A stretch of 54,360 nucleotides of DNA from assembly GCA_039588275.1 (NCBI GenBank), contig JBDHAC010000023.1, positions 1 through 54,360 on the forward strand, given 5' to 3'. The DNA is from Gemmatimonadota bacterium. GTDB taxonomy: Bacteria; Gemmatimonadota; Gemmatimonadetes; Palauibacterales; Palauibacteraceae. The notes under the pieces were generated by a model. That model did not search any database and was not told the origin of the DNA. It was given only the letters and a program-made list of their open reading frames with translations. The translations under genes and the position numbers were made by a program. Shown piece after piece: positions 1,433 to 41,152 of the stretch (its first letter is position 1; every line of letters starts with the position of its first letter).

Positions 1433-2005
1433 CTAGTCGATCAGCAGGAAGATCGCAATGGCGAGCGAGGCCAGCACCGCAGCAAGCCCCGCCCAAACGA
1501 AGGGGCGCCTCGGTCGCGCCCTGATGGAGCGGAAGAACCCTTTGACGGCGGTCTCGTCGGCAGGGCCGGTGCCGGTCGCAGGTCGGGCGCTCGCCCGATC
1601 TCCCGTCTGAAACACCGCCGTCGCGGCCCTGGGCTGCGGGGGGGTAGCCGGCTCCACGGCTTCTCTCACTGGCCCGCCGTCGTTCGCTTCAGCGGCACCC
1701 TGCACCGGCGCCTCGGCTTCGAAACGTGCTGAGGGTCCGCCGAGACCGTACTCGATGATGTCTCCGTCATGAAGAACCTGCTCGGTGATCCTTCGGTCGT
1801 TGACGAAGGTGCCGTTGGTGCTGGCTTCATCGCGTATGAGGTACTGCCCATCGCGGTAGCGCAGCGAGGCTTGGAGTCGGGAAACGACCTCGTCCGGGAG
1901 AACCAGGTCCTCTTCGGGGTTTCGACCGATGGTGAAGCCCTGATCGAGCAGAGAGACCACGGCGCCCTCCAAATCCCCGCTGAGGAACACGAGCTTGGCA
2001 CTCAC
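1433..2005 (-). CDS. FHA-domain protein with C-terminal transmembrane anchor
   Basis: FHA motifs FTIGR, VSRLQA and STNGTFVND; Pro/Ala linker; hydrophobic C-terminus. GTG start at 2005 preferred because the ORF-track start at 2080 overlaps the PP2C gene. Confidence 0.85.
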   Translation of the reverse strand: MSAKLVFLSGDLEGAVVSLLDQGFTIGRNPEEDLVLPDEVVSRLQASLRYRDGQYLIRDEASTNGTFVNDRRITEQVLHDGDIIEYGLGGPSARFEAEAPVQGAAEANDGGPVREAVEPATPPQPRAATAVFQTGDRASARPATGTGPADETAVKGFFRSIRARPRRPFVWAGLAAVLASLAIAIFLLID

Positions 2006-2036
2006 CAGGTACCTACTTTCAACTTGAAATGCGCGG

Positions 2037-2912
2037 TCACCCGAAGTGTGCGACGACGACGGTGATGTTGTCGTATCCACCCCCGGCCTTGGCCATCCCG
2101 ATCAGCGCCTCGCACTGATCCAGCGGTGTCGTGCTGGACGACAGAACCTCGGCCAGCTCTGGATCATCCACCAGGCCATGAAGTCCGTCGCTGCAGAGCA
2201 ACAGCCGATCTCCAGATCCGACCCTGAAGTCGAAGGCATCTACCTCGACCGCCTCTCGGGCACCGATCGCTTGCAGGAGCAAGTTCCGCTCATTGTGCGT
2301 ACGAGCTTGTTCGGCTGTGATGTGACCGTGTGCCACTAGGCTCTGCACACGTGTCTGATCCATGGTGAGCTGTCGCAGACGACTGTGTCTCAGCAGGTAG
2401 ATTCGACTGTCGCCCACATGCGCCACCGTCAGCCCCTCTTCCAGAATGGCTACCGCGCTCAACGTGGCGCCCATCCCCTTCTTCGACGGGTCAGCCTGGC
2501 TCGCGGCCAATACTCTCCGGTTGGCCTCTTCTACACCCTCGGTCATCCACGCCTTGAATCCCGGTCCCCCGTTGGAGGACGACTCCTGAAATCCGTGCCT
2601 CGCATGGTCACACAGCGATTGAAGCGCCATGCCACTGGCCACTTCACCCGCTTGCTGCCCCCCCATGCCATCGGACACCGCGGCCAACAGGGCGGGACCC
2701 TCGTCATCGCCCCAAATCTGGAAGGCAGACTCCACCGAGCGGTCGCTGGCGAGATCCCAGAGAAGGAATGCGTCCTCGTTGTTGTCGCGGGTCAGCCCGA
2801 CATCGGTGAGCGCTGCGATCGCGAGCTGCGTGGGTCTTTCCAGCGCCGTGTGCGCGATTGGCGTCGGATTGACGCTCGAGGACTCCGACTCGCCCTGCGG
2901 CGGTTGAGACAT
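2037..2912 (-). CDS. PP2C-family Ser/Thr phosphatase (Stp1/PppA-like)
   Basis: Motifs TDVGLTRDNNEDA, SDGMGG, HVGDSRIY, LCSDGL and GGYDNITV. ATG at 2912 overlaps the upstream TGA. Confidence 0.93.
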   Translation of the reverse strand: MSQPPQGESESSSVNPTPIAHTALERPTQLAIAALTDVGLTRDNNEDAFLLWDLASDRSVESAFQIWGDDEGPALLAAVSDGMGGQQAGEVASGMALQSLCDHARHGFQESSSNGGPGFKAWMTEGVEEANRRVLAASQADPSKKGMGATLSAVAILEEGLTVAHVGDSRIYLLRHSRLRQLTMDQTRVQSLVAHGHITAEQARTHNERNLLLQAIGAREAVEVDAFDFRVGSGDRLLLCSDGLHGLVDDPELAEVLSSSTTPLDQCEALIGMAKAGGGYDNITVVVAHFG

Positions 2913-3772
2913 CAGTTGGTGGCTTCCTGCATCAGCATGTACGCGAAGGAGCACGGATCGCGTCGACACTCGGCCATACCGAACTCCACGCGATAGCTAC
3001 CCGTCCGCTCGACCGGGAACGACGCGAACGGACGGCTTTCCATGTCATCGGCTTGCTGTTCGTACGCGACGCGAAACCCATCGGCATCGAACACCTGAAT
3101 ATCCAGGTTCGCACAGTTGGTGTCGCACACGGCAATCACTCCCGCCATTCGCCCACCTTCGAAGACGCGTGTGATGGCGTATCTGGCTTCCTCGCCGAGG
3201 TTCGCCGTCTGGATGATCGAGCTCGTCTCCCAATCCGCGGCCATCGTCAGTCGGTAATGGTCGTATAGACCACTCACCACTTGGCCGGAGGCAGAACGAT
3301 CCCGCACCACCCAGTAGGCGACATAGCAGGGCTCAGATCGACATTCGGCCATCCCGAACCTGACTCGGTGTGTCGAGGAATCCCCCGCGGTGAAGCGGGC
3401 AAACGGGTACTTGGCCGCGTCTGCCTCCTGCGCGTCGTACGCTACCCTGAAGCCATCCGTGTCGAAGATCTCGATGTTCAGGTCAACACAGTCATCGTCG
3501 CAGGATCCGAGCACGCCCGCTCGTTGCCCGGCGGCCGTAGATACCTCCAAGTCGACCGTCTCCCCCTGGTCCAGGTACAGCAGGGTGACGTCCGAGCTGG
3601 GTGTCCAGTCGGTGGCCAAGTTCTGCTCGAAGTGCGTCTGCAGAGATCCCCGCGCCTGGTTCAGAAAGATCTGCTCGGAGACGATGGGGGTGCATCGAGC
3701 TGTCGACCCGGCAACGACGAGTACCGGGAAGGCGAGTGTGGCCAGACGTAAATGACCGCTAATGCTCCGCAT
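2912..3772 (-). CDS. Exported protein with two tandem Cys-containing PPC-like domains
   Basis: N-terminal hydrophobic signal. Two copies of CDxxCxxLxIxxFDxDGFRVAY...PFAxF...RVxFGMAECRxxPC. RBS GGAGGA precedes ATG 3772. Confidence 0.75.
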   Translation of the reverse strand: MRSISGHLRLATLAFPVLVVAGSTARCTPIVSEQIFLNQARGSLQTHFEQNLATDWTPSSDVTLLYLDQGETVDLEVSTAAGQRAGVLGSCDDDCVDLNIEIFDTDGFRVAYDAQEADAAKYPFARFTAGDSSTHRVRFGMAECRSEPCYVAYWVVRDRSASGQVVSGLYDHYRLTMAADWETSSIIQTANLGEEARYAITRVFEGGRMAGVIAVCDTNCANLDIQVFDADGFRVAYEQQADDMESRPFASFPVERTGSYRVEFGMAECRRDPCSFAYMLMQEATN

Positions 3773-3837
3773 ATCTTCCTCCGAAGGGCCAGGCCCTAGC
3801 CGAAGTCGGGTAAGTGCACGGCGCGACGGCGCGTGCA

Positions 3838-6642
3838 CTACCGTCTGAGCAGTCGCCACCGCCCCGAACCGCGGACCTCGCACTCGACCGTGCCGATGAT
3901 CCGGGTGCTCGACATACCCGCCGGGTCGGCTCTGTACGTGCAGTCGTGATCACCCCGGCGACCCCCGAGAACCACTCCATCCGGCTGGATGGACCCCGCG
4001 ATCCGAAGCTCGCGCGATTGTCCGGTAGTGCCGCACCTCTCCAGCAGCGTAGCTTGCCCCGAGACGCCCGATGTGGTTTGCTCCAGCTGGAAAGGGTGCG
4101 GCCCCGACGAGCACCCAGCGTCGTCGAACGTGTCGTAGAAATTCCAGCTCCCCAGGTACGAGGCGGAGAACACCTCCTCTGGAGGCTCTTCCGGATCGGG
4201 GCCCGTATCTCGTTCGGTCTCTCGCGCCGAGTCTGGCGGGTCGCCTGGGGGAGACACCGGTGGTGGCGGCGGAGTCTGAGCCACCTGGCCAGCTCTCTCT
4301 CTCTCCAAGCGACGGATCTCGACGACGGCGAGGTCGACTAGATCTCTGCAGGTCTCGTCGTGACTTGGCAGAAGATCCATGCACGCGCGCGCCGTATCGC
4401 GAGCCTGGGCCAGCCGCCGCCCATCGAGCAACGCCTGCGCGTCCGCCGCCCACTCGTTCGCGACCTCGCTGATCAGTCCGTCGGCTGTCGAGTTCCCGGG
4501 GTCGAGCTGGTCCACCTGCGAGAGTACCACCACCGCGTCCCGGTATCTCCGCGCGTCGATGGCATCGCGCGCCGCCTGCAGGAGCGAATCCGCCCGAAGA
4601 CCGGTCCGGCTCGTGAGGATCATCCGGATTTCGGTGTTCAGCCCTCCCGCCAGGTACACCGTGTCCGGCACATTCAGCGGCTCGCGCGTGCCCTGGGTCG
4701 ACCTCACATCGGTTGTGAGGACGATCCACTCCTCGGAGTCGTTTTGCACGGCGTACCAGCCCGGGGTCAGCTCTTCACCTGTATCCAGATCACAGGGAGA
4801 GCACCCTGGAGAGACGTCAGAGCGGAGCGAGACGCGGGCCTCGGCCGGCGCCCCATCGGGTCCATCCTGCTGGGCGACCACGGCGAGTCGGGCCGAGCCA
4901 CCACGGGCTCGGATCCTGACGTCCGCCTGTCGTGCCCGACGCAGGAGCTCCTGGAAGCCCATTGTCGAAGCCCAGTCGACCCTGATCAGCTCTTCGCCGC
5001 TTGCCGTGTTCCGCAGGGCTTCGAAGCTCCCGTCGTCCGTGACCCGCAATTCCGAGATCTCACCGTTCTCAGCCATACCAAAGAAGAGGCCCGCGGTCAC
5101 GGTTTGGGGTGGCGTGAACAGGTCGACGATCCAGTCGGCCGCGTTCGCGAGAGGTGCACGCAGAGGGCCGACTACCAGGTAGGTCCCTCCGCCCAGTATC
5201 AGGACGATCGCGCTGAGCGCGGTGACTCGGCGCCACGGCGCCGCAGAGGCGACGCCTGCGAGGCCGCCGCCCGCCGCCCGCCCAGCGCCCGCAAAGCCGC
5301 GTCCGATGCCCGCGACCGCGCGCCACATGAGTGAAGCCATCCCTCGGACCCCGGACGCCACGCCGCCAAGCCCTTTGCGAGCTCCCACCCCCACGCTCGT
5401 GAGCCCCGACACGAAGCGCTCGCTCGGGCTCGCCGTGCGCTCGAGCGGTATCTTGACGTGGCTCGTCTCGTCCTCGACGATCCGGACGCGGGCTTGCGCC
5501 GGCTGGCAATACTTCGCACGGACGCGGAGCTCGTACTCGCCCGGCGGCAACGGTCCGATCTCCCACGGGGTGCGCCCCTTGGCGACCACAGCCGCTTGAC
5601 GCTTGAGGAGAACGGCGGCGCCGGCCGGTACGCTTTCGACCCGTAGGCTGCCGCCAGAAGGTACGCCCACAGTGAGCTGGAGTCGCTGCAGCGCCTTGTC
5701 CAGATCCGCCGCCGATTGAAACCGGAGCGCGGGATCCTTCTCCAGTAGCCTCAGTACCACGGCCTCGATGTCGGCCGTCAGATCGGGTCTGGCCTCCCGC
5801 GGCGGAACGGGCGGCTTGTTCAGCATCGCATCCATCGCCCGGAGTTGCGTGGACTGCGAAGACGGCAACCCGAACTTCCGGCCGAGCCAGGGCTCATGCT
5901 CCGTCAGCATGTTGTAGAGGATGACCCCGGCAGCGAACAGGTCCGTGCGGGCGTCGATGTTCTCTCCGAGGTACTGCTCGGGCGGCATGTACCCGTACGA
6001 GCCCAGCCCCTGTCCCACTTCAGTGAGGCTGTCGTGTCCGACCTTCTTCGCGATCCCGAAGTCGAGGATCTTGACGAGGTCCCGCCCGTTTCGATCCAAC
6101 AGGAAGATGTTGTCGGGTTTCAGGTCCCGATGAACCACCGGCGGATCGTGGCTGTGGGCGACGGTGAGGGCCGCACAGATCTGTCGCATGATCGCAATCG
6201 TGCGATCCGGCTCCATGACCCCGGACTCCAGGAGCAGCTGATGCAGGCTGATCCCGTCCAGGAATTCGAGCGTGAAGTACCAGAGTCGCCGCTCCTCATC
6301 CTGGTCAAAGTGGTGCAGCTTCGGCACGTAATCCGTATGACCGGCGAGCTCCCGGAGCAGCTGCGCGTCCTGGCGGAATCGGCGGATTTGCTTCGGGCGG
6401 CTGGCGACGTGTGGGTGGAGGACTTTGAGGGCCTCGATCGTGTCGAGCTCGAGATTGCGGACCCGATATACGGTGCCGAACCCGCCTGAGGCGACCTTGG
6501 AAAGTACCTCGTACCGATCGTCGAAGATGACACCGACGAGCGGATCCTCCGCGACCTCGGCCCTCTCGATTCGCAACCCGCATTGCGGGCAGTACTTGAC
6601 CGAGTCGGGACAATCGGCGTTGCAGCGCGAGCAGGCGATCAT
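3838..6642 (-). CDS. Membrane Hanks-type Ser/Thr kinase (zinc ribbon, kinase, PEGA, TM, periplasmic region with TPR-like helices); PpkA-like role inferred
   Basis: CxxC..CxxC N-terminus; motifs SGGFGTVY, ALK, HRDLKPDN, DFG and YMPPEQ; PEGA signature GSLRVESVPAGAAV; TM segment VTALSAIVLILGGGTYLVV. Confidence 0.92.
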   Translation of the reverse strand: MIACSRCNADCPDSVKYCPQCGLRIERAEVAEDPLVGVIFDDRYEVLSKVASGGFGTVYRVRNLELDTIEALKVLHPHVASRPKQIRRFRQDAQLLRELAGHTDYVPKLHHFDQDEERRLWYFTLEFLDGISLHQLLLESGVMEPDRTIAIMRQICAALTVAHSHDPPVVHRDLKPDNIFLLDRNGRDLVKILDFGIAKKVGHDSLTEVGQGLGSYGYMPPEQYLGENIDARTDLFAAGVILYNMLTEHEPWLGRKFGLPSSQSTQLRAMDAMLNKPPVPPREARPDLTADIEAVVLRLLEKDPALRFQSAADLDKALQRLQLTVGVPSGGSLRVESVPAGAAVLLKRQAAVVAKGRTPWEIGPLPPGEYELRVRAKYCQPAQARVRIVEDETSHVKIPLERTASPSERFVSGLTSVGVGARKGLGGVASGVRGMASLMWRAVAGIGRGFAGAGRAAGGGLAGVASAAPWRRVTALSAIVLILGGGTYLVVGPLRAPLANAADWIVDLFTPPQTVTAGLFFGMAENGEISELRVTDDGSFEALRNTASGEELIRVDWASTMGFQELLRRARQADVRIRARGGSARLAVVAQQDGPDGAPAEARVSLRSDVSPGCSPCDLDTGEELTPGWYAVQNDSEEWIVLTTDVRSTQGTREPLNVPDTVYLAGGLNTEIRMILTSRTGLRADSLLQAARDAIDARRYRDAVVVLSQVDQLDPGNSTADGLISEVANEWAADAQALLDGRRLAQARDTARACMDLLPSHDETCRDLVDLAVVEIRRLERERAGQVAQTPPPPPVSPPGDPPDSARETERDTGPDPEEPPEEVFSASYLGSWNFYDTFDDAGCSSGPHPFQLEQTTSGVSGQATLLERCGTTGQSRELRIAGSIQPDGVVLGGRRGDHDCTYRADPAGMSSTRIIGTVECEVRGSGRWRLLRR

Positions 6643-6655
6643 GGGGCGGATCCGT

Positions 6656-7009
6656 TCAACTCACCCGCCTGAACGGGTCAGACGGGTGACGTAGCTCGAA
6701 GCGGATGACCTGCTTTCCGATCGCCACGTGATCCCCGTGCCGCAGCCGCTGGGGCCCTCGAATTCGAACATACACGCCATTCAGACTCCCCTCGTCCTTC
6801 AACGTGCAGCGAAACGCGGTCGACCCATCCTCTTGGGTGACGGTCTCGACCCGAATGGACGCGTGTTTGGACGAGAGGACGTGGTCGTCCGGGAAGGTCA
6901 AGTCGGCATCCCGACGGCCAATGACCGTCATCCCGGGCCTCAACGGGAAGACTTCGCCCTTTTGCCCCTCCTCGTGGATGCGGACGAGACGCGGCCCGGC
7001 GGCGCTCAT
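6656..7009 (-). CDS. Single FHA-domain protein
   Basis: Motifs VIGRRDADL, LSSKHA, DEGSLNGVYV and GDHVAIGKQ. Start uncertain: ATG 7009, but the frame is open to 7141. Confidence 0.85.
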   Translation of the reverse strand: MSAAGPRLVRIHEEGQKGEVFPLRPGMTVIGRRDADLTFPDDHVLSSKHASIRVETVTQEDGSTAFRCTLKDEGSLNGVYVRIRGPQRLRHGDHVAIGKQVIRFELRHPSDPFRRVS

Positions 7010-7112
7010 GATTCGCCAGCCGGCGGGTGTGAGTCGGGGTTCACGCTGTTGAGACTCCTGGTTGAGGGATCCGCCATCGGAAGCCCTGGTCGACTCGTCC
7101 GGCGCATTGCCG

Positions 7113-7754
7113 CTAGACCGTGAACTCGAATACTTGCCCACCCACGAGGATCTGATCTCCGGGACGGAGCTCGTATTCCTCGGTCAGCCGATAGAAGGTG
7201 CCGTTCACGGAGTCGAGATCCTCGATCACGTAGGACCCCTCTTCGCGACGAATCCTCACGTGTCGGTCGGATAGATACGGATCTTCTGGCACGCAGACGT
7301 CACCATTCACACGTCCGATGATGATCTCGTCCTCGAAGTCGACCGCCTCGGCACGCCCCTCGGGGAGGAGCCTCTGGATTCGTCCCTGGTCGAGCACCGT
7401 CGAGGAGACGAACAGTTGCGTGCCGGTGTCCGCGGTGCCCGTCCCGGTCGAGACCGGCGTCGCGGGGCGTGCAGCGGCGACGGGTGGCTCCGACTCCGCG
7501 GGTGGCTCTGACTCGGCGCGCGGTTCAGGCTCCGAGATCTTCCACCCGCATTCCGGGCATGATTCGGTGCCCGCCGGGTTCGCGTATCCACACTGGGGGC
7601 AGTCCGCCTGCTCGAAGACGTCGGTGGCTGACGGGGGCGTGGGCGTGGTCGTTGAAGACTCGGTTTTCTGGGGGAGAGGCTTTCCACACTCCCCACAGAA
7701 CCGGCTACCGGGGGCGTTGGCTGTGGAACACGCGGCACAGGTGACGGTCGACAA
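7113..7754 (-). CDS. Double zinc-ribbon plus FHA-domain protein
   Basis: Two CxxC-x10-CxxC ribbons; FHA motifs IIGR, LSDRH and DSVNGTF. TTG start follows a GGAGGAG RBS. Confidence 0.88.
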   Translation of the reverse strand: MSTVTCAACSTANAPGSRFCGECGKPLPQKTESSTTTPTPPSATDVFEQADCPQCGYANPAGTESCPECGWKISEPEPRAESEPPAESEPPVAAARPATPVSTGTGTADTGTQLFVSSTVLDQGRIQRLLPEGRAEAVDFEDEIIIGRVNGDVCVPEDPYLSDRHVRIRREEGSYVIEDLDSVNGTFYRLTEEYELRPGDQILVGGQVFEFTV

Positions 7755-8624: not shown

Positions 8625-11600
8625 CTAGGGGATGGGCGGGACACAGCCTCGAAGTCCCGCCAGGAATCTCGGGTCCAAGATGCGGGCGCTCACGCTCAGC
8701 TGCAATTGGCCTTGCAGCGTCTCCCCCGTGGGGAGTTGCCACTGCAGTCCAAACTGGGAGGGGCTCTGCTCCGTCCAGGCGGCGGCGCCGAGCAGTCGGA
8801 ACAACGCCCACGGTCCCTGGAAGCTCAAGACCGTCTGCTCGTCCAGCGTCGTCCCCCTGGTGATGCTGGCCGTCTGTGCCCGTGCGCCGTCCCAACGCAA
8901 GTTCTGACGGCGCATCTCCCTCTGTCTGAAGCGGAGCTCCTGGCCATCGACCCTCAAAGTCACTTCGGGTATCTCGTCGGAAGTCTCGAGCGTGAGGACG
9001 AAATCGACCGCCGCACGCTCGCCGTCCGCGTAGAGCGACTCGGAGATGCGAACCGCACGGTTGAAGTAGGCGAGGAACGCGGAAGTCGGCTGCGGTCTCG
9101 CACCGCTCTCGACCACGTACGTGCCCCGGCGCCGAATGAGGTTGCGCTCGCGCAGGTCGGCCTCGAAAGCCCACAACTCGCTTTCTCCCGGCTTCAATGC
9201 TGCGTCGAGCTCTTCGATGGTGGCCTGCTGGCCCGCGGTCATGTTGAACGGGTACTTCGAGGTCAGGTCGGAGAGCGCGGCGCAGAACGCCTCGCCCCGT
9301 CCCCGCGCCCCGGCGGCCGGGATGCCCGCCACCAGGCGCTGAACGCGCTGTGCGGGTGACTCCAATAGACTTTGCACGAGGGACCCGTTGGCGCGCGCTT
9401 CGCCCTCGCTGGAGAAGCCTTGAGCAAGCTGGCGAACCGATTGGATCACCGCCTCGGCGTCGCCATCGGCTACGCCCAGGTTCAGCTCTTCCTCAGCCTC
9501 GTCTCGGGCGTCGGCGACGTTTCCGATCGAAAAGCTGAGTTGGCTCAGAGCATCGATGTAGGCGTTGTTGGCGGGGACGATGAGTTGCTGTCCACCCGCC
9601 GTGTCGAACGGCATGACGTGGTGAACCGGCTGGAAGGCCCGGTACACGACCCCCGAGTCCAGGGTCGTGTTGGCCGAGATCATCCAGAGTAGCTGGAAGA
9701 TGGGCGACGTGTTCGAGCTCAAACGCTCGAGAGTACGTGCAGCGGCCCGGGATGCCGAAAGCCCCTGAACCGAGGCCGATCTCAGGAAATCTCTCCAGTG
9801 GCCGACGTAGTCCGTCACATACCGGGCTTCGAGTGCCTCGGCGAGCTCCTCGGGATCGATATCGCTGAAGCTCTGCGGCCCCATGACATACTCTTCGCGC
9901 GCGAGGAGCTCGTCGATGTCGCCGAGGTTGTCCTGGACGAAGTCCCAGCCGGGAGCCGTGAATGCCCCAGGCACGGTGACCGGGTCGCTGAGCACGCCCG
10001 CCTCCCCGAACCGAATCGGCGGGCTCCCGCGACCGGCTCGCGCCAGCATGCTCTGGTAGTAGTGGTCGACGTCGGTGAAGCGCCGAAGGAAAGCGCGCGC
10101 TCTCGCGGCGACTACAGTGTTCTCGAGGTCGGCCAGGTCGGCGGGCTCGCCGATCGGCAACTCGCGTGCATAAAACGCGAATTGTGAGTCCGCGAGGATC
10201 ACGGACTCGTCTCCTTCGCTTCGTCCCCAGTGCCGCACGAGGACCGGTGCGAGAAACTCCTGGGTGGCCGAGTCGGCGTAACTCGTCACCTGCAGGTACG
10301 CCTTCAAGTCGTCGTACGTCGAGTTGAAATCGGTCGACTCACCGGGCACGTCCGGGAGACCGTCGAGGGTCGAAACGAGGCTCGTCCGCACGTCTCTGCC
10401 GAGCACGCGATCAAAGAGGCGGAAGTATGCCCCGCGCGCATCCGGGAAGATGGCGGATCCCTTGTACAGTCCCCACCGATACGACAGCGGCCGTCTGCCA
10501 GACTCGTACGTTCTGAGCCGTTGGACCTGCTCGCGGAGGTCGTCGAGTAGCCGAAGATCTTCGAGAGATGCCCGTCCTTCCGGCGCCCTGGCGAGCAACT
10601 CCGCCCCGCCGAGCGCGGCCTGCACGTCGTTCGTGAGCGATCGATTCTGGAAGAACGAGACCGTCGTCCCGAGCACCAGAAGCGTACCGAGCGCGACCGC
10701 GGAGCCCGCGACGAGGCGACGCAGGAGGTTCACGCGCACGCCCCCCCCGGTGATGGCCATCGCGACCTGATCGTCGAGCAGCACGTCACGGAAGAGACGG
10801 CGAACGAAAACCCACTGCGGGACTCGGCGCGTCCCGGACGGCGGAACCGCCGCCGGTTGTGCAGGCCCACCCGCGTCGAAGATCCGCGTGGCACCGACGG
10901 GAGAGGCATCGAACGCGTGCGGCGCGGGGGCCGGGGCGGACTCTTCCGACACGACCGGTCGCACGCCCGTGAAGTAGAAGCCCCGCAGGAACGGGCTCAC
11001 CGAGAGCTGACTAGGCCGACACAGATCGACGAGGAACTGCGTCGCGACGTCTCGGATCTTCCGGACCTCGCGCGGGAACTCGTACGTGCCTGCCGTGCCC
11101 TCCGCGCTCGCCTCCCTCCTCAACAACTCGACACGCCTGAGCGCGAGGGAGTGGATAAGGCCGTCGAAGCTCTCGTACACGCGCTGTGATTCGCGCTCGG
11201 CGTAGGCCTTGCCGCGAGGGTCAGCCGAAATCGGCAGCGTTGCCCCGAGTACGTCCCCGGTCTCGGATGTGCTGAAACTGGCTACGTACTCCTCGAAATA
11301 CGGGATGCGGTCCGCCTTCGTGAAGAAGACGTACACGGGGAGCCGCACGCCCAGGCTCTCGCCGAGCTCCATCAATTGCCTGCGAATCTCTCGTGCTGCG
11401 CTCGTGACGGACTCGGAGCTGCCGGGCTTGTCGAGCTCATCGCACGGGTAGCACACGACCGCGAGCCTCGGGGCCTGACGACCGCGCCCCAGGACGGCGC
11501 CGATTCGACGTGGCCGGAGATGGCGGATCAGCCGCGACCAGCTCTTGGGCTCGTCCAGCAGCTTCCCGCCCGCTTCGACGAACATGGCGCCCTCGCCGAA

Positions 11601-12047
11601 CCAGGCGTTCGCGGTCTCGGTCGATACGACGGATTCGCCTCGATACACCTCGCCCGCGAGATGCTCGGTGTTGAGGCCACTCACCTCAAGGAGGCTCGTC
11701 TTGGTGCTGCCGGCTGGCCCAACGAATAGAAAAACCGGAAGCCGTCCGATCTTCCCCCCACCGATTCCGCCTTCCGTCAGCCGCCTCCGCACCTCGGAGA
11801 ACAAGCGGTCGATCTCGTCCAGCGCTGCCTTCTGCGGAGCGTCTGCGGAAGACTCTTTGGGTAGGCTGCGAGAGAGATAGCGGAACATCATGAACGCCAT
11901 GCCGAGGCCGAGGAACGCGAGCGCTCCCTGGAAGATCATCCGGTTACTGCCCTGGAGGCGCAGGACGACGCTGCCGACCCATGCCAGCCCCAGGAACGAG
12001 AGCAGCATGGTGGACGGGAACACCCGCATCTTGGTTTTCTTTTTCAT
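8625..12047 (-). CDS. tssM: T6SS membrane complex subunit TssM/IcmF
   Basis: Two N-terminal TMs; LPVFLFVGPAGSTKTS P-loop; LPVYVFFTKAD; FLRGFYFTG; third TM; KYPF and GPWALFRLL C-terminal motifs. ATG overlaps the tssL stop. Confidence 0.95.
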   Translation of the reverse strand: MKKKTKMRVFPSTMLLSFLGLAWVGSVVLRLQGSNRMIFQGALAFLGLGMAFMMFRYLSRSLPKESSADAPQKAALDEIDRLFSEVRRRLTEGGIGGGKIGRLPVFLFVGPAGSTKTSLLEVSGLNTEHLAGEVYRGESVVSTETANAWFGEGAMFVEAGGKLLDEPKSWSRLIRHLRPRRIGAVLGRGRQAPRLAVVCYPCDELDKPGSSESVTSAAREIRRQLMELGESLGVRLPVYVFFTKADRIPYFEEYVASFSTSETGDVLGATLPISADPRGKAYAERESQRVYESFDGLIHSLALRRVELLRREASAEGTAGTYEFPREVRKIRDVATQFLVDLCRPSQLSVSPFLRGFYFTGVRPVVSEESAPAPAPHAFDASPVGATRIFDAGGPAQPAAVPPSGTRRVPQWVFVRRLFRDVLLDDQVAMAITGGGVRVNLLRRLVAGSAVALGTLLVLGTTVSFFQNRSLTNDVQAALGGAELLARAPEGRASLEDLRLLDDLREQVQRLRTYESGRRPLSYRWGLYKGSAIFPDARGAYFRLFDRVLGRDVRTSLVSTLDGLPDVPGESTDFNSTYDDLKAYLQVTSYADSATQEFLAPVLVRHWGRSEGDESVILADSQFAFYARELPIGEPADLADLENTVVAARARAFLRRFTDVDHYYQSMLARAGRGSPPIRFGEAGVLSDPVTVPGAFTAPGWDFVQDNLGDIDELLAREEYVMGPQSFSDIDPEELAEALEARYVTDYVGHWRDFLRSASVQGLSASRAAARTLERLSSNTSPIFQLLWMISANTTLDSGVVYRAFQPVHHVMPFDTAGGQQLIVPANNAYIDALSQLSFSIGNVADARDEAEEELNLGVADGDAEAVIQSVRQLAQGFSSEGEARANGSLVQSLLESPAQRVQRLVAGIPAAGARGRGEAFCAALSDLTSKYPFNMTAGQQATIEELDAALKPGESELWAFEADLRERNLIRRRGTYVVESGARPQPTSAFLAYFNRAVRISESLYADGERAAVDFVLTLETSDEIPEVTLRVDGQELRFRQREMRRQNLRWDGARAQTASITRGTTLDEQTVLSFQGPWALFRLLGAAAWTEQSPSQFGLQWQLPTGETLQGQLQLSVSARILDPRFLAGLRGCVPPIP

Positions 12048-12781
12048 CCGGCGATCCCCTCGGTGAGGGTGATCACCTCCCTGACTCCGGGACGGAGCAG
12101 GAGGGTATACAGGAGGAAGAGGACCAGCGCGACCCCGAAGGAGGCTGCCGCGCCGATGGTGAGCCGGCGCATCCACGGGTCCGCCGCTATCGTGAGCTTC
12201 TCGTCGGCCGGCGGCGCCCACGAAGGCGAAAGGTCGCCCCACTGCCCCCGAATGCGCCGGATCTTCTCGTCTCCTTGCGACACGAGGTTTTTCAGCTCAC
12301 TGCTTTCGCCCGATCCATAACGACCCCGGAAGCCGAGGAGCAGGCACAAGAGGTAGACCTCGAGCACGTCGGCCACGCCATGTGAGTCCGGGCGCGCGAG
12401 CAAATCGCGGTAATGATCGAAGAAGATCTCCCCTGCCGTGTGGTGCCGGAATACCTCCTCCTGGAGCGGCTGCCGCGCCCACTCCGAGAACATGGGTTGG
12501 GTGGAGTTGAGGACGCTCTCATCCAGGAACGCGATATACGCATAGACCGCCAACCGCACGTTTGCGGGGTCGTACCCCGCCTGACGCGCATCTCCATCCG
12601 CCGCAACCAACAGTTGCTTCACGTGCCGGCGAAAGGCATCGGGGTCCGTGGCCGCCTGTCGGTTCGCGCGGATTCGCACGGCCACCGTGAGAGCTTCCTG
12701 GAAAACCTGGGCGAGCCGGCCGACCTGTCGCGGGCCCCGCTGGCCCGAGCCCGGTTGGGGAAAAGACACCGCTTCGTTCAT
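12044..12781 (-). CDS. tssL: T6SS TssL/DotU
   Basis: Motifs AFLDESVL, W..QPLQ, AGEIFF and EVYLLCLLLGFRGRY; C-terminal TM; no OmpA domain. Confidence 0.95.
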   Translation of the reverse strand: MNEAVSFPQPGSGQRGPRQVGRLAQVFQEALTVAVRIRANRQAATDPDAFRRHVKQLLVAADGDARQAGYDPANVRLAVYAYIAFLDESVLNSTQPMFSEWARQPLQEEVFRHHTAGEIFFDHYRDLLARPDSHGVADVLEVYLLCLLLGFRGRYGSGESSELKNLVSQGDEKIRRIRGQWGDLSPSWAPPADEKLTIAADPWMRRLTIGAAASFGVALVLFLLYTLLLRPGVREVITLTEGIAG

Positions 12782-12821: not shown

Positions 12822-14198
12822 TCAAGCCCCCAGCGCGATGAGGACTGCCAACTCCAAGTCGGCCAAGCGCTCGGGGACGTAAACGCCGATCTCGACCGCC
12901 TCCCCAGCCTCCAGCGACTTCTTCAACGCCAGCCAGCAGCCCTCTTTGGGGTCGGTCTCGATCCTGAAGTACTCGGCGCCCAGCTGGGGCGAGATCTCGG
13001 CCGGTGGGGCGGGGACGTGCTCGAGGCCCATCCCCGAATGCGCCGTCTGCACGAGACGAACAATGTGCCTGGCCGAGCAGATCTTCACCAGCTGCGGAAC
13101 ACGAGAAATGGCTTCCGCGTGGCTTCCGCCGCCGACCTTCGCCTCTAGAAACCAGTTGGCCCCTTCGAAGCTTCGAGGGTCGGGGACCGTGCCACGCAGG
13201 AAGGATTCCTCCATGGGCTCTAATACGACGCGCAGTGCGCGCCTTGGAAGGACGACGGTTAGGTGCGATCGGATGTGCTGCTCGAGAGCTCCGAAACACC
13301 CCTGCAAGTCCTCGTGATCGTATAGAGCGAGGTCCTGCGGCAGGGCGTGCATCGAGAAGGTGCACAGGGCGCCACTCACCCGCAGCAGCTCCATGTAGAG
13401 CTCTTCGGGGTGGGTCGTTCTGGCCTCGAAGTGATGCCGGAGAGGTGGCAGACCGGATTGAATTGCGTGCGATAGCCAGAAGTTGGTGATCTCGTCCGGC
13501 GCGAACTCGGCCGACGTCCCCTCGCTCCCCCGCTCCGCGGCCAGCGCCGCCGTCTTCGCTTCCATTTCCTCGATGAGTCGACGCAGCATCTCCATGATGC
13601 GAGAGCTGGCCCCGATGTGAAGGCACGGGGGAATATAGTGCGGATCATATACGAAGTTGCCGGAGCGATCTCTCCGCACGGTAGCCAGGGGCAGCGCCAC
13701 CACGTCTTCGAGTTCCGCCGTGTCCAACGCGAGGCAAAAGTTCTTCTTCGCGATCGTAATCTGTTTCTCGTCCAGTCCAGTCGTCTCGTCGGAGACGTCC
13801 ACGACCTCGGGGACGTAGCGAGTCGCCACGCCGCCCGGAGTGGGCTCGACGGAGCAGTTTGCCCGACCCGGTCGGTACGAAGGGACCGTCAACAGGACGC
13901 GATGACTCTCTGCCGTCGGGGAGAAGAGGTCTCCGATGGCAAGCGCAGGCGGGAGCGCCTCGTCGGGGAACGAGAACGCGAGCCCGTCGGGCATCACTCC
14001 CGCGGCGTGCACCAACGCGACGGTTCCGTTGAGGAGCGCTTCGTTGTCGAGCTCCAGCCGGGTTAATCCGTATGGCTTGAAGACAAGGCTCGAGAGCGCA
14101 AACGCCGAGGAATCCTCGAAGTATCTGTCGCGGAGCTGGAAGTGATGGTGGGCGAGGTGCATACCCTCACGCCACACGACGGGCTTGAGAGACCTCAT
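12822..14198 (-). CDS. tssK: T6SS baseplate TssK (paralogue 1)
   Basis: VVWREGMHLAHHHFQ..DRY, GVMPDG, YIPPCL, HPEELY and YDHEDL. GGAGG precedes ATG 14198; alternative start 14210. Confidence 0.92.
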   Translation of the reverse strand: MRSLKPVVWREGMHLAHHHFQLRDRYFEDSSAFALSSLVFKPYGLTRLELDNEALLNGTVALVHAAGVMPDGLAFSFPDEALPPALAIGDLFSPTAESHRVLLTVPSYRPGRANCSVEPTPGGVATRYVPEVVDVSDETTGLDEKQITIAKKNFCLALDTAELEDVVALPLATVRRDRSGNFVYDPHYIPPCLHIGASSRIMEMLRRLIEEMEAKTAALAAERGSEGTSAEFAPDEITNFWLSHAIQSGLPPLRHHFEARTTHPEELYMELLRVSGALCTFSMHALPQDLALYDHEDLQGCFGALEQHIRSHLTVVLPRRALRVVLEPMEESFLRGTVPDPRSFEGANWFLEAKVGGGSHAEAISRVPQLVKICSARHIVRLVQTAHSGMGLEHVPAPPAEISPQLGAEYFRIETDPKEGCWLALKKSLEAGEAVEIGVYVPERLADLELAVLIALGA

Positions 14199-14290
14199 CT
14201 CGACCTCCATGGGGGACGGGAGTTAATCGCGGCTACCTCTCTGCTGGGGGCCGAGGAATTCAGCCGTCGCGAAGCGGGTGCTCCGACTGT

Positions 14291-14320: not shown

Positions 14321-14416
14321 CTTATGGGCATCACCCCGGGCGACAACCTCTTGCCGAGGCTGACCGACGGACCGATTCCGTTTCTCGTGCTTCGACAGCC
14401 ACGACGCATCCACGAC

Positions 14417-15682
14417 ATGGACGGCGACGAATTCTGGTCTAAGTTCCGACTCCTGGAAAGGATCTCGGCGGGCGACGTCACGACGTACGTGACACAGGAC
14501 CCCGCCGGGGCCCGAGTGATGGCGCACTTCTTCCGCGGCCCGCCCGGACAGACCAGAGAGCTCCTCGCGCGGCTCGACGCACTCCCGGAGGACCGCCGCT
14601 CCACAATCCGCCAGACTCTCGAGGTGGACGGCTCCCCCGTGATCATCACGGATCACATCGAGCCGTTCGACACGTTTGAAGCGTGGATCGCGTCGGAAGC
14701 CCCATCCGGCCAACCGATCGCCTTCGTGGAACCCCAAGGAGACGTTCCTGAAGGAGCCGGTCCCGCGAAGGATGCCGCGGAAGAGCGAGCGCCGGGGGAG
14801 TTCACGCGGCTGTTCCTCACCGAGCGCGAGAGCCGCGAGGGGCCAGCCGAAGAGCCGCCGGCCCCCGCCGGCGAGGCCGAGTCAGCGGGGGAGGGATCCC
14901 GAGCACCGGGTGAGTTCACTCAGCTCTTCGGGCCCCGGGAGCGGTCTCGGACGCCCGAGGCCGAGCCTCCGCCACAGCCGGAGCCTCCGGCGGCGACGCG
15001 ACCGCCAACGCCGCCGCCACTGCCCCCGTCACCACCGCCGCCGTCAGCGCCGCCGTCAGCGCCGCCGTCGCCACCCCCTCCACCGCCACCTTCGGAGCTT
15101 TCGGGTGCGGACGCGGCAGAGCCTGGCAGCCCGGCGGGGGCGGAGCCTCCAAAGCACCCCCCTCGCCCCGCCGAGCCGGGTGAGTTCACGCGCATGTTCG
15201 GTCGTCCGAGCGAAGGCGAGACCGATGTCCTGGCTGGTAGGCGCGAGCGGGATCCGTCGGAGCGAGATTGGAAGATCGAAGACCCCGATTCGTATCTGCG
15301 CCGTCTCGGGGGATTGGCCCCCGCGGGGCCGTCACCGGAGGTGGATCCGTCAGTTTCAGAACCCGCTCCGCCTCTGGCCGAACCCTCCCCGCTACCCATC
15401 CCGAGGGGGCCGAGCGCTTACACGCGCGTGGTGATGGGGGGTGCCGACCCCGCGCTGACGCCACCTCCGCCGCGGCCCGCCGCGGCCCCGGCGCCCGAGC
15501 CGAAGGCGCGACCATCGCGCTGGCCGTACGTCCTCATCGTGGTCACGATCTTGATTGTCACCGTGGTGCTCTTCCTGTTCTTCGCTTCGAGGGGTACACG
15601 CGACGGTACGCCGGATGATGAGCCGGCCAGGGAGGAGGCCACGACGGAGGAGGCGGTCAGTCCTCCGGAGGGAGAAGGATAA
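14417..15682 (+). CDS. Pro-rich membrane-anchored protein with a kinase N-lobe-like domain and repeated GEFTxxF motifs
   Basis: N-terminus KFRLLERISAGDVTTYVTQDPAGARVMAHF...PVIITDHIE; three PGEFTxxF motifs; C-terminal TM YVLIVVTILIVTVVLFLFFA. Start at ATG 14417 or 14324. Confidence 0.75.
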   Translation: MDGDEFWSKFRLLERISAGDVTTYVTQDPAGARVMAHFFRGPPGQTRELLARLDALPEDRRSTIRQTLEVDGSPVIITDHIEPFDTFEAWIASEAPSGQPIAFVEPQGDVPEGAGPAKDAAEERAPGEFTRLFLTERESREGPAEEPPAPAGEAESAGEGSRAPGEFTQLFGPRERSRTPEAEPPPQPEPPAATRPPTPPPLPPSPPPPSAPPSAPPSPPPPPPPSELSGADAAEPGSPAGAEPPKHPPRPAEPGEFTRMFGRPSEGETDVLAGRRERDPSERDWKIEDPDSYLRRLGGLAPAGPSPEVDPSVSEPAPPLAEPSPLPIPRGPSAYTRVVMGGADPALTPPPPRPAAAPAPEPKARPSRWPYVLIVVTILIVTVVLFLFFASRGTRDGTPDDEPAREEATTEEAVSPPEGEG

Positions 15683-17012
15683 CGAGCTCGAGCTTCGCGT
15701 TGGGAAAGTCGTCCGGCACGTACGCCGCCAGGTTCCGGGCCTGCCGTATCGCATCCCAATCGGGCCCCGATCTGTCCAACCGGAAGTACTGGTAATCGAG
15801 CTTCACCGGTAATGCCCTCGGCGGGTCCGGGATGTGCCTCAGATCGAGCCCGGGAAGAGCACGCCTGATCAGCTGATCCATCCGATCCGCAGAGCTGACC
15901 TTGATCAGTTGCGGGACCTTCGAGAGGAGATCCTCCAACTTCAAGGCGGTGCGGATCGCGAGGTGCATGTCCGGGGCGCCGAAGTAGCGATCCTGGTCGA
16001 TGGCCGTCGCGTGGATCGTGGCCTCGGTGATCTGCAGCGGGAGCGTGATGTGGGTGGCCGGTACCACCGTCTCCAGCAGCTCGCGAAGCGCGGCATCCAG
16101 CTCCGTGAAGCACCGGCCGAGATCGCCGTGATCGTACCGAGGGAGCTCCGCCGGTCGGATCGTGGTCGAGAACGTGGTGAGCGCGCCCGCCAACGAGATC
16201 AATCCCAGCCACAGCTCACCGGGGTGCCCCCGCCGCGTCTCGAAGATGTGACGTAGGTTGGGCAAGTGGGTGTTCACGGTGTAGAGAAGCCAAAAGTTCG
16301 CGATGTCGGAGACGCCGAAATCCGCCAGCCCCCGTCGTCTCTCGCGCCGCATGCCTGACAGGGTGGCGCTCTTGGCCGTCAGAAGCTCTACCGAGCCCTT
16401 CGCCAGCCCCGTCAGATACTCGCTCGCTTCGATATCAATCACCGGAGGCACGAACTGACCGTCGAGCTGGTACTCGCCGGTGGAAGAACGGAGCACACGG
16501 GCGACCGGCAGAACCGAGAAACCCTCGAGGTTCTCTACTTCGGTGAGGAGTCGCAGGTTTTTTTCCGCCACCAGGATCGGTCGCTCGGAAGTCCCGGTGT
16601 TCTCGTCCCGACGGAGGATGTCGTCTGCCAGATACCTGGTGCTTCCGTTCTCCCGGTCGACCGAGACGTTGTAGCCCCCTACTCGGCGCTCGGGGATAGC
16701 GAGGTACAACTTGAGAGACTCGCGGTCGTCCTCCCAGTAGTCGTCGAGGGGCCTCGGCCCGGGAGGGCGGTCGGAGGCTGGAATGTCGAACAGAAGGCCG
16801 TCCGGAAAGATGCCGGCGGCCGCGGAGATCGCGAAGCTGCCCTGCGCCAGAGACTCGCGGTCGATTTCGAGGGTTCGGAATCCCCACGGACAGAACGCGT
16901 GCGAGGAGAGCCGGAACTCCAGGACGTCCTCCAGGAAGCGGTCCTGGATCTGAAGATGCTGCGGGGTCAGCAACACCCCCTTCGTCCACAGCACCGGCTG
17001 CATCTGTCGCAT
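15657..17012 (-). CDS. tssK: T6SS baseplate TssK (paralogue 2)
   Basis: VLWTKGVLLTPQHLQIQDRF, WGF, GIFPDG, FVPPVI, HPGELW and YDHGDL. The ORF-track extension to 17516 is not TssK-like. Confidence 0.92.
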   Translation of the reverse strand: MRQMQPVLWTKGVLLTPQHLQIQDRFLEDVLEFRLSSHAFCPWGFRTLEIDRESLAQGSFAISAAAGIFPDGLLFDIPASDRPPGPRPLDDYWEDDRESLKLYLAIPERRVGGYNVSVDRENGSTRYLADDILRRDENTGTSERPILVAEKNLRLLTEVENLEGFSVLPVARVLRSSTGEYQLDGQFVPPVIDIEASEYLTGLAKGSVELLTAKSATLSGMRRERRRGLADFGVSDIANFWLLYTVNTHLPNLRHIFETRRGHPGELWLGLISLAGALTTFSTTIRPAELPRYDHGDLGRCFTELDAALRELLETVVPATHITLPLQITEATIHATAIDQDRYFGAPDMHLAIRTALKLEDLLSKVPQLIKVSSADRMDQLIRRALPGLDLRHIPDPPRALPVKLDYQYFRLDRSGPDWDAIRQARNLAAYVPDDFPNAKLELVILLPPED

Positions 17013-17280
17013 GATCACGACCTCTGACTTCTTCGAGGAGTGAGAGGATCGCGAGTGCCGGCATGGCCTCCGCCCCGCGATCTCATCTGCTGCCCGAGCA
17101 GAAACTCCATAGTAACTTCCATCGTGGTGTCCCGCGCCGGCAAGGTTGCGCCGGGTCCCCACCGGAGTCCGTCGGCCCGGACGCTCTCTGGCGACCGGAG
17201 CCGGCGAGCAGACACCTGGAGCTGGCCGACGGGAAGCGGAACGGGAGCGGGCTACACCTCGAACTCCACGGGAGGACACG

Positions 17281-18825
17281 CTGAACGACTCCGAGATCCA
17301 CCTGGATGCGGGTGGCCTGGCCGACCCGGCCGATGCGCGAGAGGTACGGGACACCCCCTTCTGCATCGCCGTGCTCGGCGATTTCAGTGGCCGTGGGGCG
17401 GGGATTGGGCAGGCGAGTGGCCGGCCGGATTGGAGGGCGACGCGGGTCACGCCCGATAACATGCCCGAGTTGGCGGGATTAACGCCACGGTTGGACCTGT
17501 ACCTCGGTGGTTCCACGGAGGCGGTTCGGCTGGAGTTCGCGCGGCTCGATGATTTTCATCCGGACGCCATGTTCCGCACGCTTCCGTTGTTCGCGGAGCT
17601 GCTAGAAGCGCGAGCAGCCGTGAAGGAAGGACGAGAATCAGGATTCGCGTTCACTCCGCCGCCCGGTGAAGCGCCGGACGCGCCTCCGTCCGCCGAGCAG
17701 ACCGAGGTGCCGCCGTCACCTCCGACTCCCCGCCCGCCCTCAAACGACAGCGGGCTCCTGGACGCCATCGTAGAAGAAACCGCGCCCTCGACGCCGGGCA
17801 CTCACGGACCGGATCAGGAGATCCAGGACTTCGTGCGAAGCGTCGTACGTCCCCATCTCGTCCGTCCCGCTCCAGACCGGACCGCGGAACTGGAGGCCAT
17901 CGACCAGGCGGCCAGCGCCTTGATGCGTGCGGTCCTCCACCACGAGGATTTCAGGGCGCTCGAATCGCTGTGGCGGTCGCTCGTCTTCCTGCTCTCGCGG
18001 ATCGACACGACCGGGAAAGTGCGGGTATACATCGTGGACGTCTCCCGCGCCGAGCTGGAGGACGACCTGTTCGAGAGCGAGGACCCGACGAGGTCCCGGC
18101 TCCACGCGCTGCTCACCGCCCCCGATCAGGCGCCGGTGTCGGGTCGGTGGGCGTTGGTGGTCGGCGCCTACGCGTTCGGGGCCTCCACTGACGACGTCTC
18201 GGTGCTCGAGCGCCTGGCGCAGGTGGCACGAGCGGCGGACGTGCCGTGGTTGTCCGAGGGCGACATTCGCCTGACGGGTTGTGAATCGCTCGGTGTGACC
18301 CCGGACCCGCGCGACTGGTCCGATCCGTGGGCGGGTGAGTGGTCCAGAATTCCGAAGGCTCCACACGCGGCCTGGCTCGGTCTCGCTCTCCCGCGGTTGC
18401 TCGCCAGGGAGCCGTACGGGACGGACCTGGGTCCACGCTGCAAAACGTTCGATTTCGAAGAGGAGCCCGAGTCGAGAGAAGAGCCCGAAGAAAGTAGACC
18501 GACCCCTGGCCGAGCCCTCCTGTGGGGGAATCCGGCCTTCCTGTGCGCCGCGCTTCTCGCCCAGGCGTTCGCCCGCGATGGCTGGGACTTCTCGACGGAT
18601 GCCGTCCTGGATGTCGGTCAGGTCACGCTCGCCCGGGGTGCGTTCGCGGACGAGCAAACGCCGGTACTCACCGAGCACCGGCTCCATCCCGCGGCCGCCC
18701 AGCAAATCGCCAGGGCGGGGTTGATGCCCCTCGTGGCCTTTCCCCACGAAGCTCGGATTCGGTTGGGTGGGATTCGCCCGGTAGCCCCGCCTCCGGCGCG
18801 GCTACGAGCATGGTGGAACCCCTGA
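17281..18825 (+). CDS. TssB-like plus truncated TssC-like sheath hybrid protein
   Basis: TssB-like PFCIAVLGDFSG...LEFARLDDFHPD, then TssC-like IDQAASALMRAVLHHEDFRALESLWRSLVFL, LPRLLAREPYG and LLWGNPAF. Probable CTG start 5 nt after GGAGG. Confidence 0.8.
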   Translation: MNDSEIHLDAGGLADPADAREVRDTPFCIAVLGDFSGRGAGIGQASGRPDWRATRVTPDNMPELAGLTPRLDLYLGGSTEAVRLEFARLDDFHPDAMFRTLPLFAELLEARAAVKEGRESGFAFTPPPGEAPDAPPSAEQTEVPPSPPTPRPPSNDSGLLDAIVEETAPSTPGTHGPDQEIQDFVRSVVRPHLVRPAPDRTAELEAIDQAASALMRAVLHHEDFRALESLWRSLVFLLSRIDTTGKVRVYIVDVSRAELEDDLFESEDPTRSRLHALLTAPDQAPVSGRWALVVGAYAFGASTDDVSVLERLAQVARAADVPWLSEGDIRLTGCESLGVTPDPRDWSDPWAGEWSRIPKAPHAAWLGLALPRLLAREPYGTDLGPRCKTFDFEEEPESREEPEESRPTPGRALLWGNPAFLCAALLAQAFARDGWDFSTDAVLDVGQVTLARGAFADEQTPVLTEHRLHPAAAQQIARAGLMPLVAFPHEARIRLGGIRPVAPPPARLRAWWNP

Positions 18826-33899: not shown

Positions 33900-33936
33900 C
33901 GAGGCTCACGCGCGTCGCCTTGGCCGAGGCAGAACC

Positions 33937-41059: not shown

Positions 41060-41152
41060 GAGAGCGGACACTCTGCTCGGGAGGAACTGGCTCCCGAGAA
41101 TCGCTCACGTGGCAATCGGAATCATCGTAACGCTTTGGACGAGGGAATGACC

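Follow-up and report, generated by a model that had tools for sequence, protein, structure and literature searches.

The window analyzed here is a stretch of 54,360 nucleotides (positions 1 to 54,360) of contig JBDHAC010000023.1, from assembly GCA_039588275.1 of a Gemmatimonadota bacterium (Palauibacteraceae), and it holds a complete type VI secretion system (T6SS) locus. Upstream, on the minus strand, are genes for a PP2C phosphatase, a receptor Ser/Thr kinase and two FHA proteins, together with tssM, tssL and tssK1; past the gene of interest lie tssK2 (also on the minus strand) and a VipA/VipB-like gene, then tssB, tssC, hcp, impE/tagJ, tssA, tssE, tssF, tssG, clpV, vgrG, and effector genes. 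Flanked by tssK1 and tssK2 is a plus-strand gene that an earlier reading, made from the letters alone (the sequence-only reading), had taken to encode a membrane protein with a degenerate kinase N-lobe and an array of GEFTxxF motifs, proposed to serve as a phosphothreonine (pThr) docking platform for FHA proteins. As judged from sequence searches, this gene represents a large family that has neither annotation nor a Pfam or NCBIfam model and that occurs in Gemmatimonadota and Acidobacteriota; its product is probably a docking or regulatory part of the T6SS.

The target appears in the list of open reading frames (ORFs) of the window as 14324..15682 on the plus strand. Family alignments set its start at 14417, at a family-invariant Met followed by x-G-D-E-F, which gives a protein of 421 amino acids (aa), and the ORF singled out by the sequence-only reading proves to be a real gene with its start fixed by that Met (Table 1). 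The protein has a tail-anchored layout, with the N-terminal domain ahead of a Pro-rich linker and a single transmembrane (TM) helix, as had been claimed. The tether between domain and helix extends for about 270 residues, is rich in Pro, Ala, and Glu (27% Pro), and is disordered in the AlphaFold2 (AF2) model; K/R residues precede the TM helix, and a 27-residue acidic tail follows it. Given those K/R residues and the kinase fold described below, the N-terminal domain would be cytoplasmic. The three GEFT motifs and the membrane-proximal variant GPSAYTRVVM all lie where they had been placed. The protein has no Pfam match (E ≤ 0.1) and no NCBIfam match (E ≤ 1), and neither library identifies an FHA domain in the target itself, the FHA domains of the window being on separate proteins.

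Table 1. Positions, in the window, of the target gene and its parts and of other features of the T6SS locus
Feature	Position	Strand	Evidence or remark
Target gene: tail-anchored pseudokinase-N-lobe/GEFT-motif protein, 421 aa + stop	14417..15682	+	ORF and family Met
Kinase N-lobe-only domain, residues 1-95; H37 at VAIK Lys position	14417..14701	+	Structure and profile alignment
Motif 1, PGEFTRLF (T130)	14792..14815	+	Short helix 128-131 in AF2 model
Motif 2, PGEFTQLFG (T168)	14906..14932	+	Motif match
Motif 3, PGEFTRMFG (T258)	15176..15202	+	Helix 256-260 in AF2 model
DSYLRRL box (family consensus DYLxRL), predicted short helix	15287..15307	+	Family alignment and AF2
Membrane-proximal variant motif GPSAYTRVVM (T336); family box GPSE[FY]TR[VI][VI]	15407..15436	+	Family pattern
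Single C-terminal TM helix, residues 366-394 of 421	15512..15598	+	TM prediction and AF2
tssK1, divergent neighbor, first gene of tssK1-tssL-tssM	12822..14210	-	PF05936, E 9.8e-112
tssK2, convergent neighbor; ORF overlaps target 3' end by 26 bp	15657..17516	-	PF05936, E 1.7e-136
tssM	8625..12242	-	Membrane-complex gene traveling with the family
tssL	12044..12781	-	Membrane-complex gene traveling with the family
Receptor Ser/Thr kinase STK1, candidate kinase for the motifs	3838..6642	-	Zinc ribbon, kinase, PEGA, single TM 473-494, outer domain
PP2C phosphatase	2037..2969	-	Domain scan
FHA1	6656..7141	-	Canonical pThr-binding residues GR...SxxH...NG
FHA2, zinc-ribbon	7113..7754	-	Canonical pThr-binding residues GR...SxxH...NG
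FHA3, tail-anchored FHA protein, TM 192-215	1433..2080	-	SxxH His replaced by Gln (SRLQ)
Extra sheath-like protein	17146..18825	+	Weak VipA match, residues 62-160; VipB N-terminal match, residues 249-533
323-aa ORF between PP2C and kinase genes	2912..3883	-	No Pfam or NCBIfam match
3-Oxoacyl-ACP-synthase-like gene	33784..34950	+	NF004798, E 3.9e-115
Second membrane Ser/Thr kinase	39329..42058	+	TM 299-323

The N-terminal domain is, on structural modeling, a protein-kinase N-lobe without a C-lobe, in which the Gly loop is degenerate and a His replaces the catalytic Lys. The comparison of an AlphaFold model with kinase folds that the sequence-only reading had suggested yields a confident N-lobe: residues 1 to 110 are modeled with a pLDDT of 84 and a pTM of 0.71 (127-row alignment), and in the full-length AF2 run the domain reaches pLDDT values of 94 to 98 and has the topology helix-b1-b2-b3-aC-b4-b5-aD. 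Protein kinases make up all 50 of the matches listed in a Foldseek search of the PDB, headed by PknB of Staphylococcus aureus (4eqm_A; E 6.3e-4, TM-score of 0.47 on the query), and a structure search independent of Foldseek (48,161 chains) likewise lists kinase or pseudokinase folds in 50 of 50 entries, with Z values that are middling (7.3 to 9.1 over 75 to 96 residues) in a list that is uniform. Profile-profile alignment with hhalign, which set 127 family members against six real kinase N-lobes taken from the window and related loci, agrees with the structural results (probability of 88.1%, E 3e-6, 89 columns), and its register is the one first proposed: SAGD-V falls on GEGGFG, and H37 falls on the VAIK lysine, the Lys being invariant in the six real kinases and H37 in the 127 sequences. 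W90 is also invariant, T78 and F84 are nearly so, and the N-lobe, the only folded soluble part of the protein, is highly conserved. From residue 95 onward the AF2 model is disordered, with nothing folded apart from the TM helix and hence no C-lobe with HRD and DFG; a PF00069 match (E ≤ 0.01) is found in none of the 127 family members. The loss of the Gly loop and of the catalytic Lys and the missing C-lobe are therefore all as originally described. The protein is not an enzyme, and its head is a catalytically dead N-lobe.

Weaker sequence methods miss the relationship to kinases, and significance is reached only when the 127-sequence profile is aligned with a kinase profile. A 7-sequence family profile aligned with single kinases by hhalign gave probabilities of 0.7 to 1.6%, which are not significant, and a PDB sequence profile search had no kinase among the matches listed. 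The top of that search was occupied by designed armadillo repeats, which were built from many weak repeat matches and which we judged to be spurious. In the ESM Atlas, the domain retrieves clusters of hypothetical proteins, together with kinase-fragment clusters that score only 0.86 and are a lead at best.

The tether carries the second hallmark of the protein, its threonine motifs. The pattern GEFT..[FLMIV] is present in 9 of the 28,523 six-frame ORFs of at least 80 aa in the 4.1-Mb assembly, but multiple copies (three) are present in the target ORF alone, and for this reason the motifs cannot be put down to chance. Across the family, the consensus is P-G-E-F-T-R-(L/M)-F-G. When conservation is counted by freeing each position in turn, the central position is Thr in 211 of 213 copies and Ser in 2 of 213, so that the Thr conservation on which the docking proposal depended is close to complete. 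Among the surrounding positions, G at -3 (290/299), F at -1 (279/310), and F at +3 (290/323) are conserved as strongly as the Thr, and an acidic residue (E or D) occupies -2 in 290 of 340 copies. Shortly ahead of the TM helix, the family has a GPSE[FY]TR[VI][VI] box, with a DYLxRL box between it and the GEFT motifs; the membrane-proximal box, searched as G.[ST].[FY][TS], occurs in 55 members of at least 300 aa. In the AF2 model, motif 1, motif 3, and DSYLRRL each form a helix of one turn, and the remaining tether is disordered.

A profile of seven N-domains, searched against 1.84 billion entries, recovers 672 cluster representatives at E ≤ 1e-3, of which 303 also pass E ≤ 1e-10. In the 150 matches listed, the domain begins no later than residue 100, and mostly at residue 1 or 2. 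Architectures were counted in 150 sequences (the 149 other matches listed plus P0003), of which 108 are at least 300 aa long. Exactly one TM helix, located at the C terminus, is found in 105 of these 108 long members, followed by no residues in 73 of the 105 and by 0 to 3 residues in 84 of them; the motif G[ED][FY]T..[FLMIV] is present in 94 of the 108, as many as seven times in a single protein. Ten of 11 family proteins are unnamed or called “hypothetical protein” at their source, and the other bears an unrelated JGI name. None of these 11, which came from a profile search for longer forms, is fused to another domain, which is weak evidence against fusions, and a word-indexed search with residues 1 to 110 returned only the target itself and one 85% relative. 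One of the carrier genomes (G055) has a second, shorter paralogue (L015, 14018-15112, minus strand; 359 aa, two motifs) that adjoins vgrG in the same T6SS locus, approximately 24 kb from the first copy and 500 bp from a Ser/Thr kinase gene.

By placement and by co-occurrence with core genes, the family is a T6SS accessory component, and it is tied to a two-tssK T6SS lineage of the Gemmatimonadota and Acidobacteriota. Among 61 relatives, the N-domain has strong matches (E 5e-22 to 2e-12) in G011, G046, G053, G055 (two copies), and G056, besides the window's genome, and TssK (PF05936) occurs in exactly the same 6 of the 61 genomes, in two copies each; three weak N-domain matches (E 0.004 to 0.006, two of them with in-frame stops) fall in TssK-negative genomes and are probably noise. 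In an even sample of the phylum, TssK is present in 14 of 151 genomes, including the window's own, and the family is present in 10 of the 13 others. Its gene lies between the two tssK genes in nine of these ten carriers and adjoins one tssK, on a short contig, in the tenth; in the three TssK-positive genomes that lack the family, the match to TssK is single or weak.

The search of T6SS loci for the motif, also suggested by the sequence-only reading, extended this linkage to homologues elsewhere. A degenerate DNA pattern for PGEFTR(L/F)FG, scanned through approximately 185,000 species genomes, located 56 loci, of which 41 contain a family ORF (with L023 and L024 sharing one place): 22 from Gemmatimonadota, 18 from Acidobacteriota lineages, and 1 from an “uncultured bacterium.” The remaining 15 comprise 14 single matches outside a T6SS context and one (L044) that lies in a T6SS locus and falls below the family-ORF criterion. 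A tssK gene is situated no more than 500 bp from the family gene in 37 of the 41 loci and somewhere in the locus in 40 of them, although some of these loci probably come from the same genomes as the set of 61 relatives, such that the counts are not independent. Each of five long records has exactly two tssK genes, and two tssK paralogues are present in every carrier checked. In the cultured Acidobacteriaceae bacterium KBS 96 (G064), the T6SS is split over three loci (1.063 Mb, 1.877 Mb, and 2.973 Mb, in order of position). At one of them the family gene is with tssK1-tssL-tssM, the genes from tssB to vgrG are about 1.1 Mb away, and tssK2 is alone at another, an orphan with no recognized T6SS neighbor within 20 kb. 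The family therefore travels with the TssK1-TssL-TssM module.

We rank first, tentatively and with somewhat less than even confidence, the reading that the protein is a membrane-tethered, multivalent docking array switched by Thr phosphorylation. It would be a tail-anchored inner-membrane accessory protein whose tether displays the motifs beside the TssK-TssL-TssM module. In each motif, a Hanks-type receptor kinase (here, STK1) would phosphorylate the invariant Thr, from which the PP2C phosphatase would remove the phosphate; the phosphorylated motifs would recruit pThr readers (here, the three FHA proteins) to the junction of baseplate and membrane complex, and this recruitment would license T6SS assembly. 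The N-lobe remnant would probably be a docking head for the kinase or for the membrane complex. We infer motif phosphorylation, FHA binding, a partner for the N-lobe, and an effect on firing, and we place this reading first because the kinase-derived head, the juxtamembrane-like tether, and the 211:2 ratio of Thr to Ser are hard to explain otherwise and because a kinase, a phosphatase, and three readers are adjacent in the window genome. The N-lobe fold points to descent from a membrane kinase, and the tether of PknB-type membrane kinases is the usual place for docking phosphothreonines. The strict use of Thr over Ser and the hydrophobic residue at +3 fit the preferences of both FHA domains and Hanks-type kinases, and FHA domains are specific for pThr (PMC3953482). 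In the window, FHA1 and FHA2 retain the canonical pThr-binding residues. A kinase gene is within 10 kb in 10 of the 19 loci that have at least 8 kb on both flanks (two of which overlap one place), and about 500 bp from a family gene in L023 and L063. The close linkage to tssK, the co-occurrence with TssK, and the single C-terminal TM helix of the long members also count in favor of this reading.

Several observations weigh against this docking array. In the same 19 full-flank loci, PP2C is found in 3 and FHA in 1 (by phmmer) or 2 (by signature). Because phmmer with the window FHA domains is insensitive, it was supplemented by the regular expression GR..SxxH..NG, which gave two convincing and three spurious matches, and by PF00498 searches of genomes. 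Over whole genomes, the PF00498 searches found no FHA gene within approximately 100 kb of the family gene in four of the five long records, and the G055 T6SS locus likewise yielded none. In KBS 96, all three T6SS loci are free of nearby kinase, PP2C, and FHA genes, yet its family protein keeps six Thr motifs. With FHA mostly absent and the motifs kept in KBS 96, the conservation of Thr is not explained by readers encoded at the locus. The linked kinases differ in their accessory domains (FGE-sulfatase, Big_2, PEGA/TPR), and such differing sensor domains suggest variable regulatory input rather than a fixed partner. In the motif itself, no Asp or Glu was seen at the Thr position among the 213 copies, and F-T-R-L-F, with P-G before it and G after it, is predicted to form a single helical turn, unlike the peptides bound by FHA domains, which are extended.

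The proposal of an FHA-docking platform thus stands in part: the N-lobe, the Thr conservation, the T6SS link, and the kinase, PP2C, and three FHA proteins of the window all speak for it, but FHA is not a constant companion, and genetic linkage to kinase, phosphatase, and FHA genes, evident in the window, is not constant across loci. FHA proteins and kinases are encoded elsewhere in all these genomes, and a distal FHA reader, encoded away from the T6SS locus, may take part. The PEGA domain was considered as a common cytoplasmic partner and ruled out, as the linked kinases carry different accessory domains; in STK1, PEGA and the N-terminal zinc ribbon are on the cytoplasmic side of the TM helix, and the outer region of about 440 aa has no Pfam match. 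A separate observation concerns a Longimicrobiales T6SS locus with the family (L043), where a plus-strand gene at 186-1994 fuses an FHA domain to an SLT lytic transglycosylase.

A serious rival, which we rank next and consider somewhat less likely, is that the protein is an assembly tether that works independently of phosphorylation. Each motif would fold as a short amphipathic helix, with F, L/M, and F along one side and with P-G and G as caps, and would fit into a groove of a core T6SS protein from the TssK-TssL-TssM module; the copies along the tether would capture or hold baseplates at the membrane complex by avidity, with the Thr kept for packing. This explanation alone accounts for the constant companions of the family, which are tssK (within 500 bp in most loci) and tssL-tssM rather than kinase or FHA genes, and the arrangement in KBS 96, where the family gene stays with tssK1-tssL-tssM while the sheath/baseplate genes and tssK2 are at two other loci, agrees with it, as do the paired tssK paralogues, the helical turns predicted at motifs 1 and 3, and the equal conservation of G(-3), F(-1), and F(+3). 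However, the binding partner is only putative, the Thr:Ser ratio is unusually strict for a mere packing residue, a kinase gene is nearby in half of the full-flank loci, and kinase ancestry points to phospho-signaling. A co-fold of TssK1 (33-row alignment) with target residues 1 to 175 (92-row alignment) run without controls, scored 0.01 against a mark of 0.32 and is evidence neither way.

We give a lower probability still to a role as a kinase regulator, in which the orphan N-lobe would pair with the N-lobe of a receptor kinase and the motifs would be substrates or pseudo-substrates, tuning kinase output; such a role could coexist with the docking array or with the phosphorylation-independent tether. 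Activation of Hanks-type kinases through N-lobe-mediated dimers is established, as in the back-to-back dimers of PknB-type kinases, and the N-lobe is the sole folded part of the protein, conserved at H37, W90, T78, and F84; moreover, the second paralogue of G055 and the gene of L023 are each about 500 bp from a kinase gene. Conversely, a kinase gene is missing from the 10 kb around the family gene in half of the full-flank loci, none is near the T6SS loci of KBS 96, and the linked kinases vary in architecture. That the ORF is no functional unit at all, only a low-complexity Pro-rich or mis-called frame with chance motifs, might be argued from its 27% Pro tether and from the long alternative ORFs that overlap it on both strands (common in DNA of 67% GC) but is refuted by 672 representatives, the same architecture in two phyla, a confident N-domain model, and conserved synteny.

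A scheme to which we attach little probability would combine these elements, with the Fha-type scaffold replaced in the two-tssK lineage by a membrane-tethered “phospho-velcro”: the N-lobe would dock on the receptor kinase or TssL-TssM, the F-T-R-L-F helices would bind the TssK heads, which resemble phage receptor-binding proteins, and Thr phosphorylation would switch each contact on or off, such that baseplate docking is gated site by site. To our knowledge, a stand-alone kinase N-lobe serving as an adaptor domain would itself be without precedent.

Known systems offer partial parallels. The T6SS threonine phosphorylation pathway operates through PpkA-PppA-Fha1 in the H1-T6SS of Pseudomonas aeruginosa and through TssL-pThr14/Fha in Agrobacterium tumefaciens (PMC3953482). 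The window resembles this pathway in that genes for a receptor kinase of the membrane, a PP2C, and FHA proteins lie beside tssM and tssL, and the candidate acceptor, like TssL-pThr14, is a membrane-anchored cytoplasmic segment with Thr sites near the membrane complex. It differs in that this acceptor is neither Fha nor TssL but a tail-anchored protein in its own right, with an N-lobe head and one to seven repeated sites rather than a single Thr, in that FHA genes are missing from most family-bearing loci, and in that phosphorylation here is predicted.

A second parallel is EssB/YukC, described in bioRxiv 10.1101/2020.05.09.085852 as a membrane pseudokinase of the type VIIb secretion system; in both cases, a single-pass membrane protein of a secretion machine carries a cytoplasmic domain with a kinase fold that is catalytically dead. 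The family differs in belonging to another secretion system and phylum and in consisting of an N-lobe only, joined to a disordered motif array. In EssB/YukC, the pseudokinase fold is complete and an extracellular domain is present, whereas most family members have no residues beyond the TM helix. Among the PDB matches listed in the profile search and the two structure searches there is no EssB/YukC entry, though a relationship may lie beyond the listed matches. In Mycobacterium tuberculosis, the pseudokinase domain of MviN (MurJ) with FhaA and the juxtamembrane phosphothreonines of PknB are cases in which a Thr phosphorylated in trans recruits an FHA protein at the membrane, and they share with the family a dead kinase domain or kinase tether with Thr sites at the membrane; unlike the family, they act in cell wall synthesis and have full-length kinase folds, single sites, and no GEFTxxF motif. 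With Hanks-type kinases in general (PF00069), the target has in common the fold of the N-lobe, with b1-b3, aC, b4-b5, and the hinge in the same register, but not the C-lobe, the Lys, or an intact Gly loop. We found no paper containing any of six motif strings and no description of the protein among the titles listed for literature on T6SS and pseudokinases or on T6SS/TssK in Gemmatimonadota and Acidobacteriota.

Control of T6SS assembly is understood from a few Proteobacteria (PpkA/PppA/Fha1 and TssL-pThr14), and here a large unannotated family behaves like a lineage-specific core T6SS part in two major soil phyla, joining an orphan kinase N-lobe to a linear motif that is multivalent, keeps strictly to Thr, and sits on a membrane tether. 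The present analysis contributes the finding of an invariant His in place of the Lys, the count of Thr against Ser, the exact co-occurrence with two tssK paralogues, the split loci of KBS 96, and the absence of FHA from most loci. If the motifs are phospho-switches, they would provide a mutable handle on T6SS arming in environmental Acidobacteria and Gemmatimonadota (four Thr, one kinase, and one phosphatase in the present case) and an example of a kinase decayed into a pure scaffold; if they are not, the family would point to an as yet undescribed contact by which the duplicated TssK baseplate proteins meet the membrane complex. These questions are testable, since a cultured carrier, KBS 96, is available.

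Four further features of the window deserve mention. The extra sheath-like gene adjoins tssK2, upstream of the regular tssB and tssC, and has homologues in most Gemmatimonadota loci and in some Acidobacteriota loci. The 323-aa ORF between the PP2C and kinase genes contains two tandem Cys-rich modules of about 110 aa that share near-identical stretches (C-D-x-x-C-x-x-L-x-I-x-x-F-D-x-D-G-F-R-V-A-Y ... F-G-M-A-E-C-R). Within the T6SS effector region, the 3-oxoacyl-ACP-synthase-like gene sits between a DUF2169 gene and a gene whose PAAR-like product bears a GHH2 nuclease toxin domain. The gene for the second membrane Ser/Thr kinase, located downstream of this region, is followed by one for a CsgG/LpoB-like lipoprotein.

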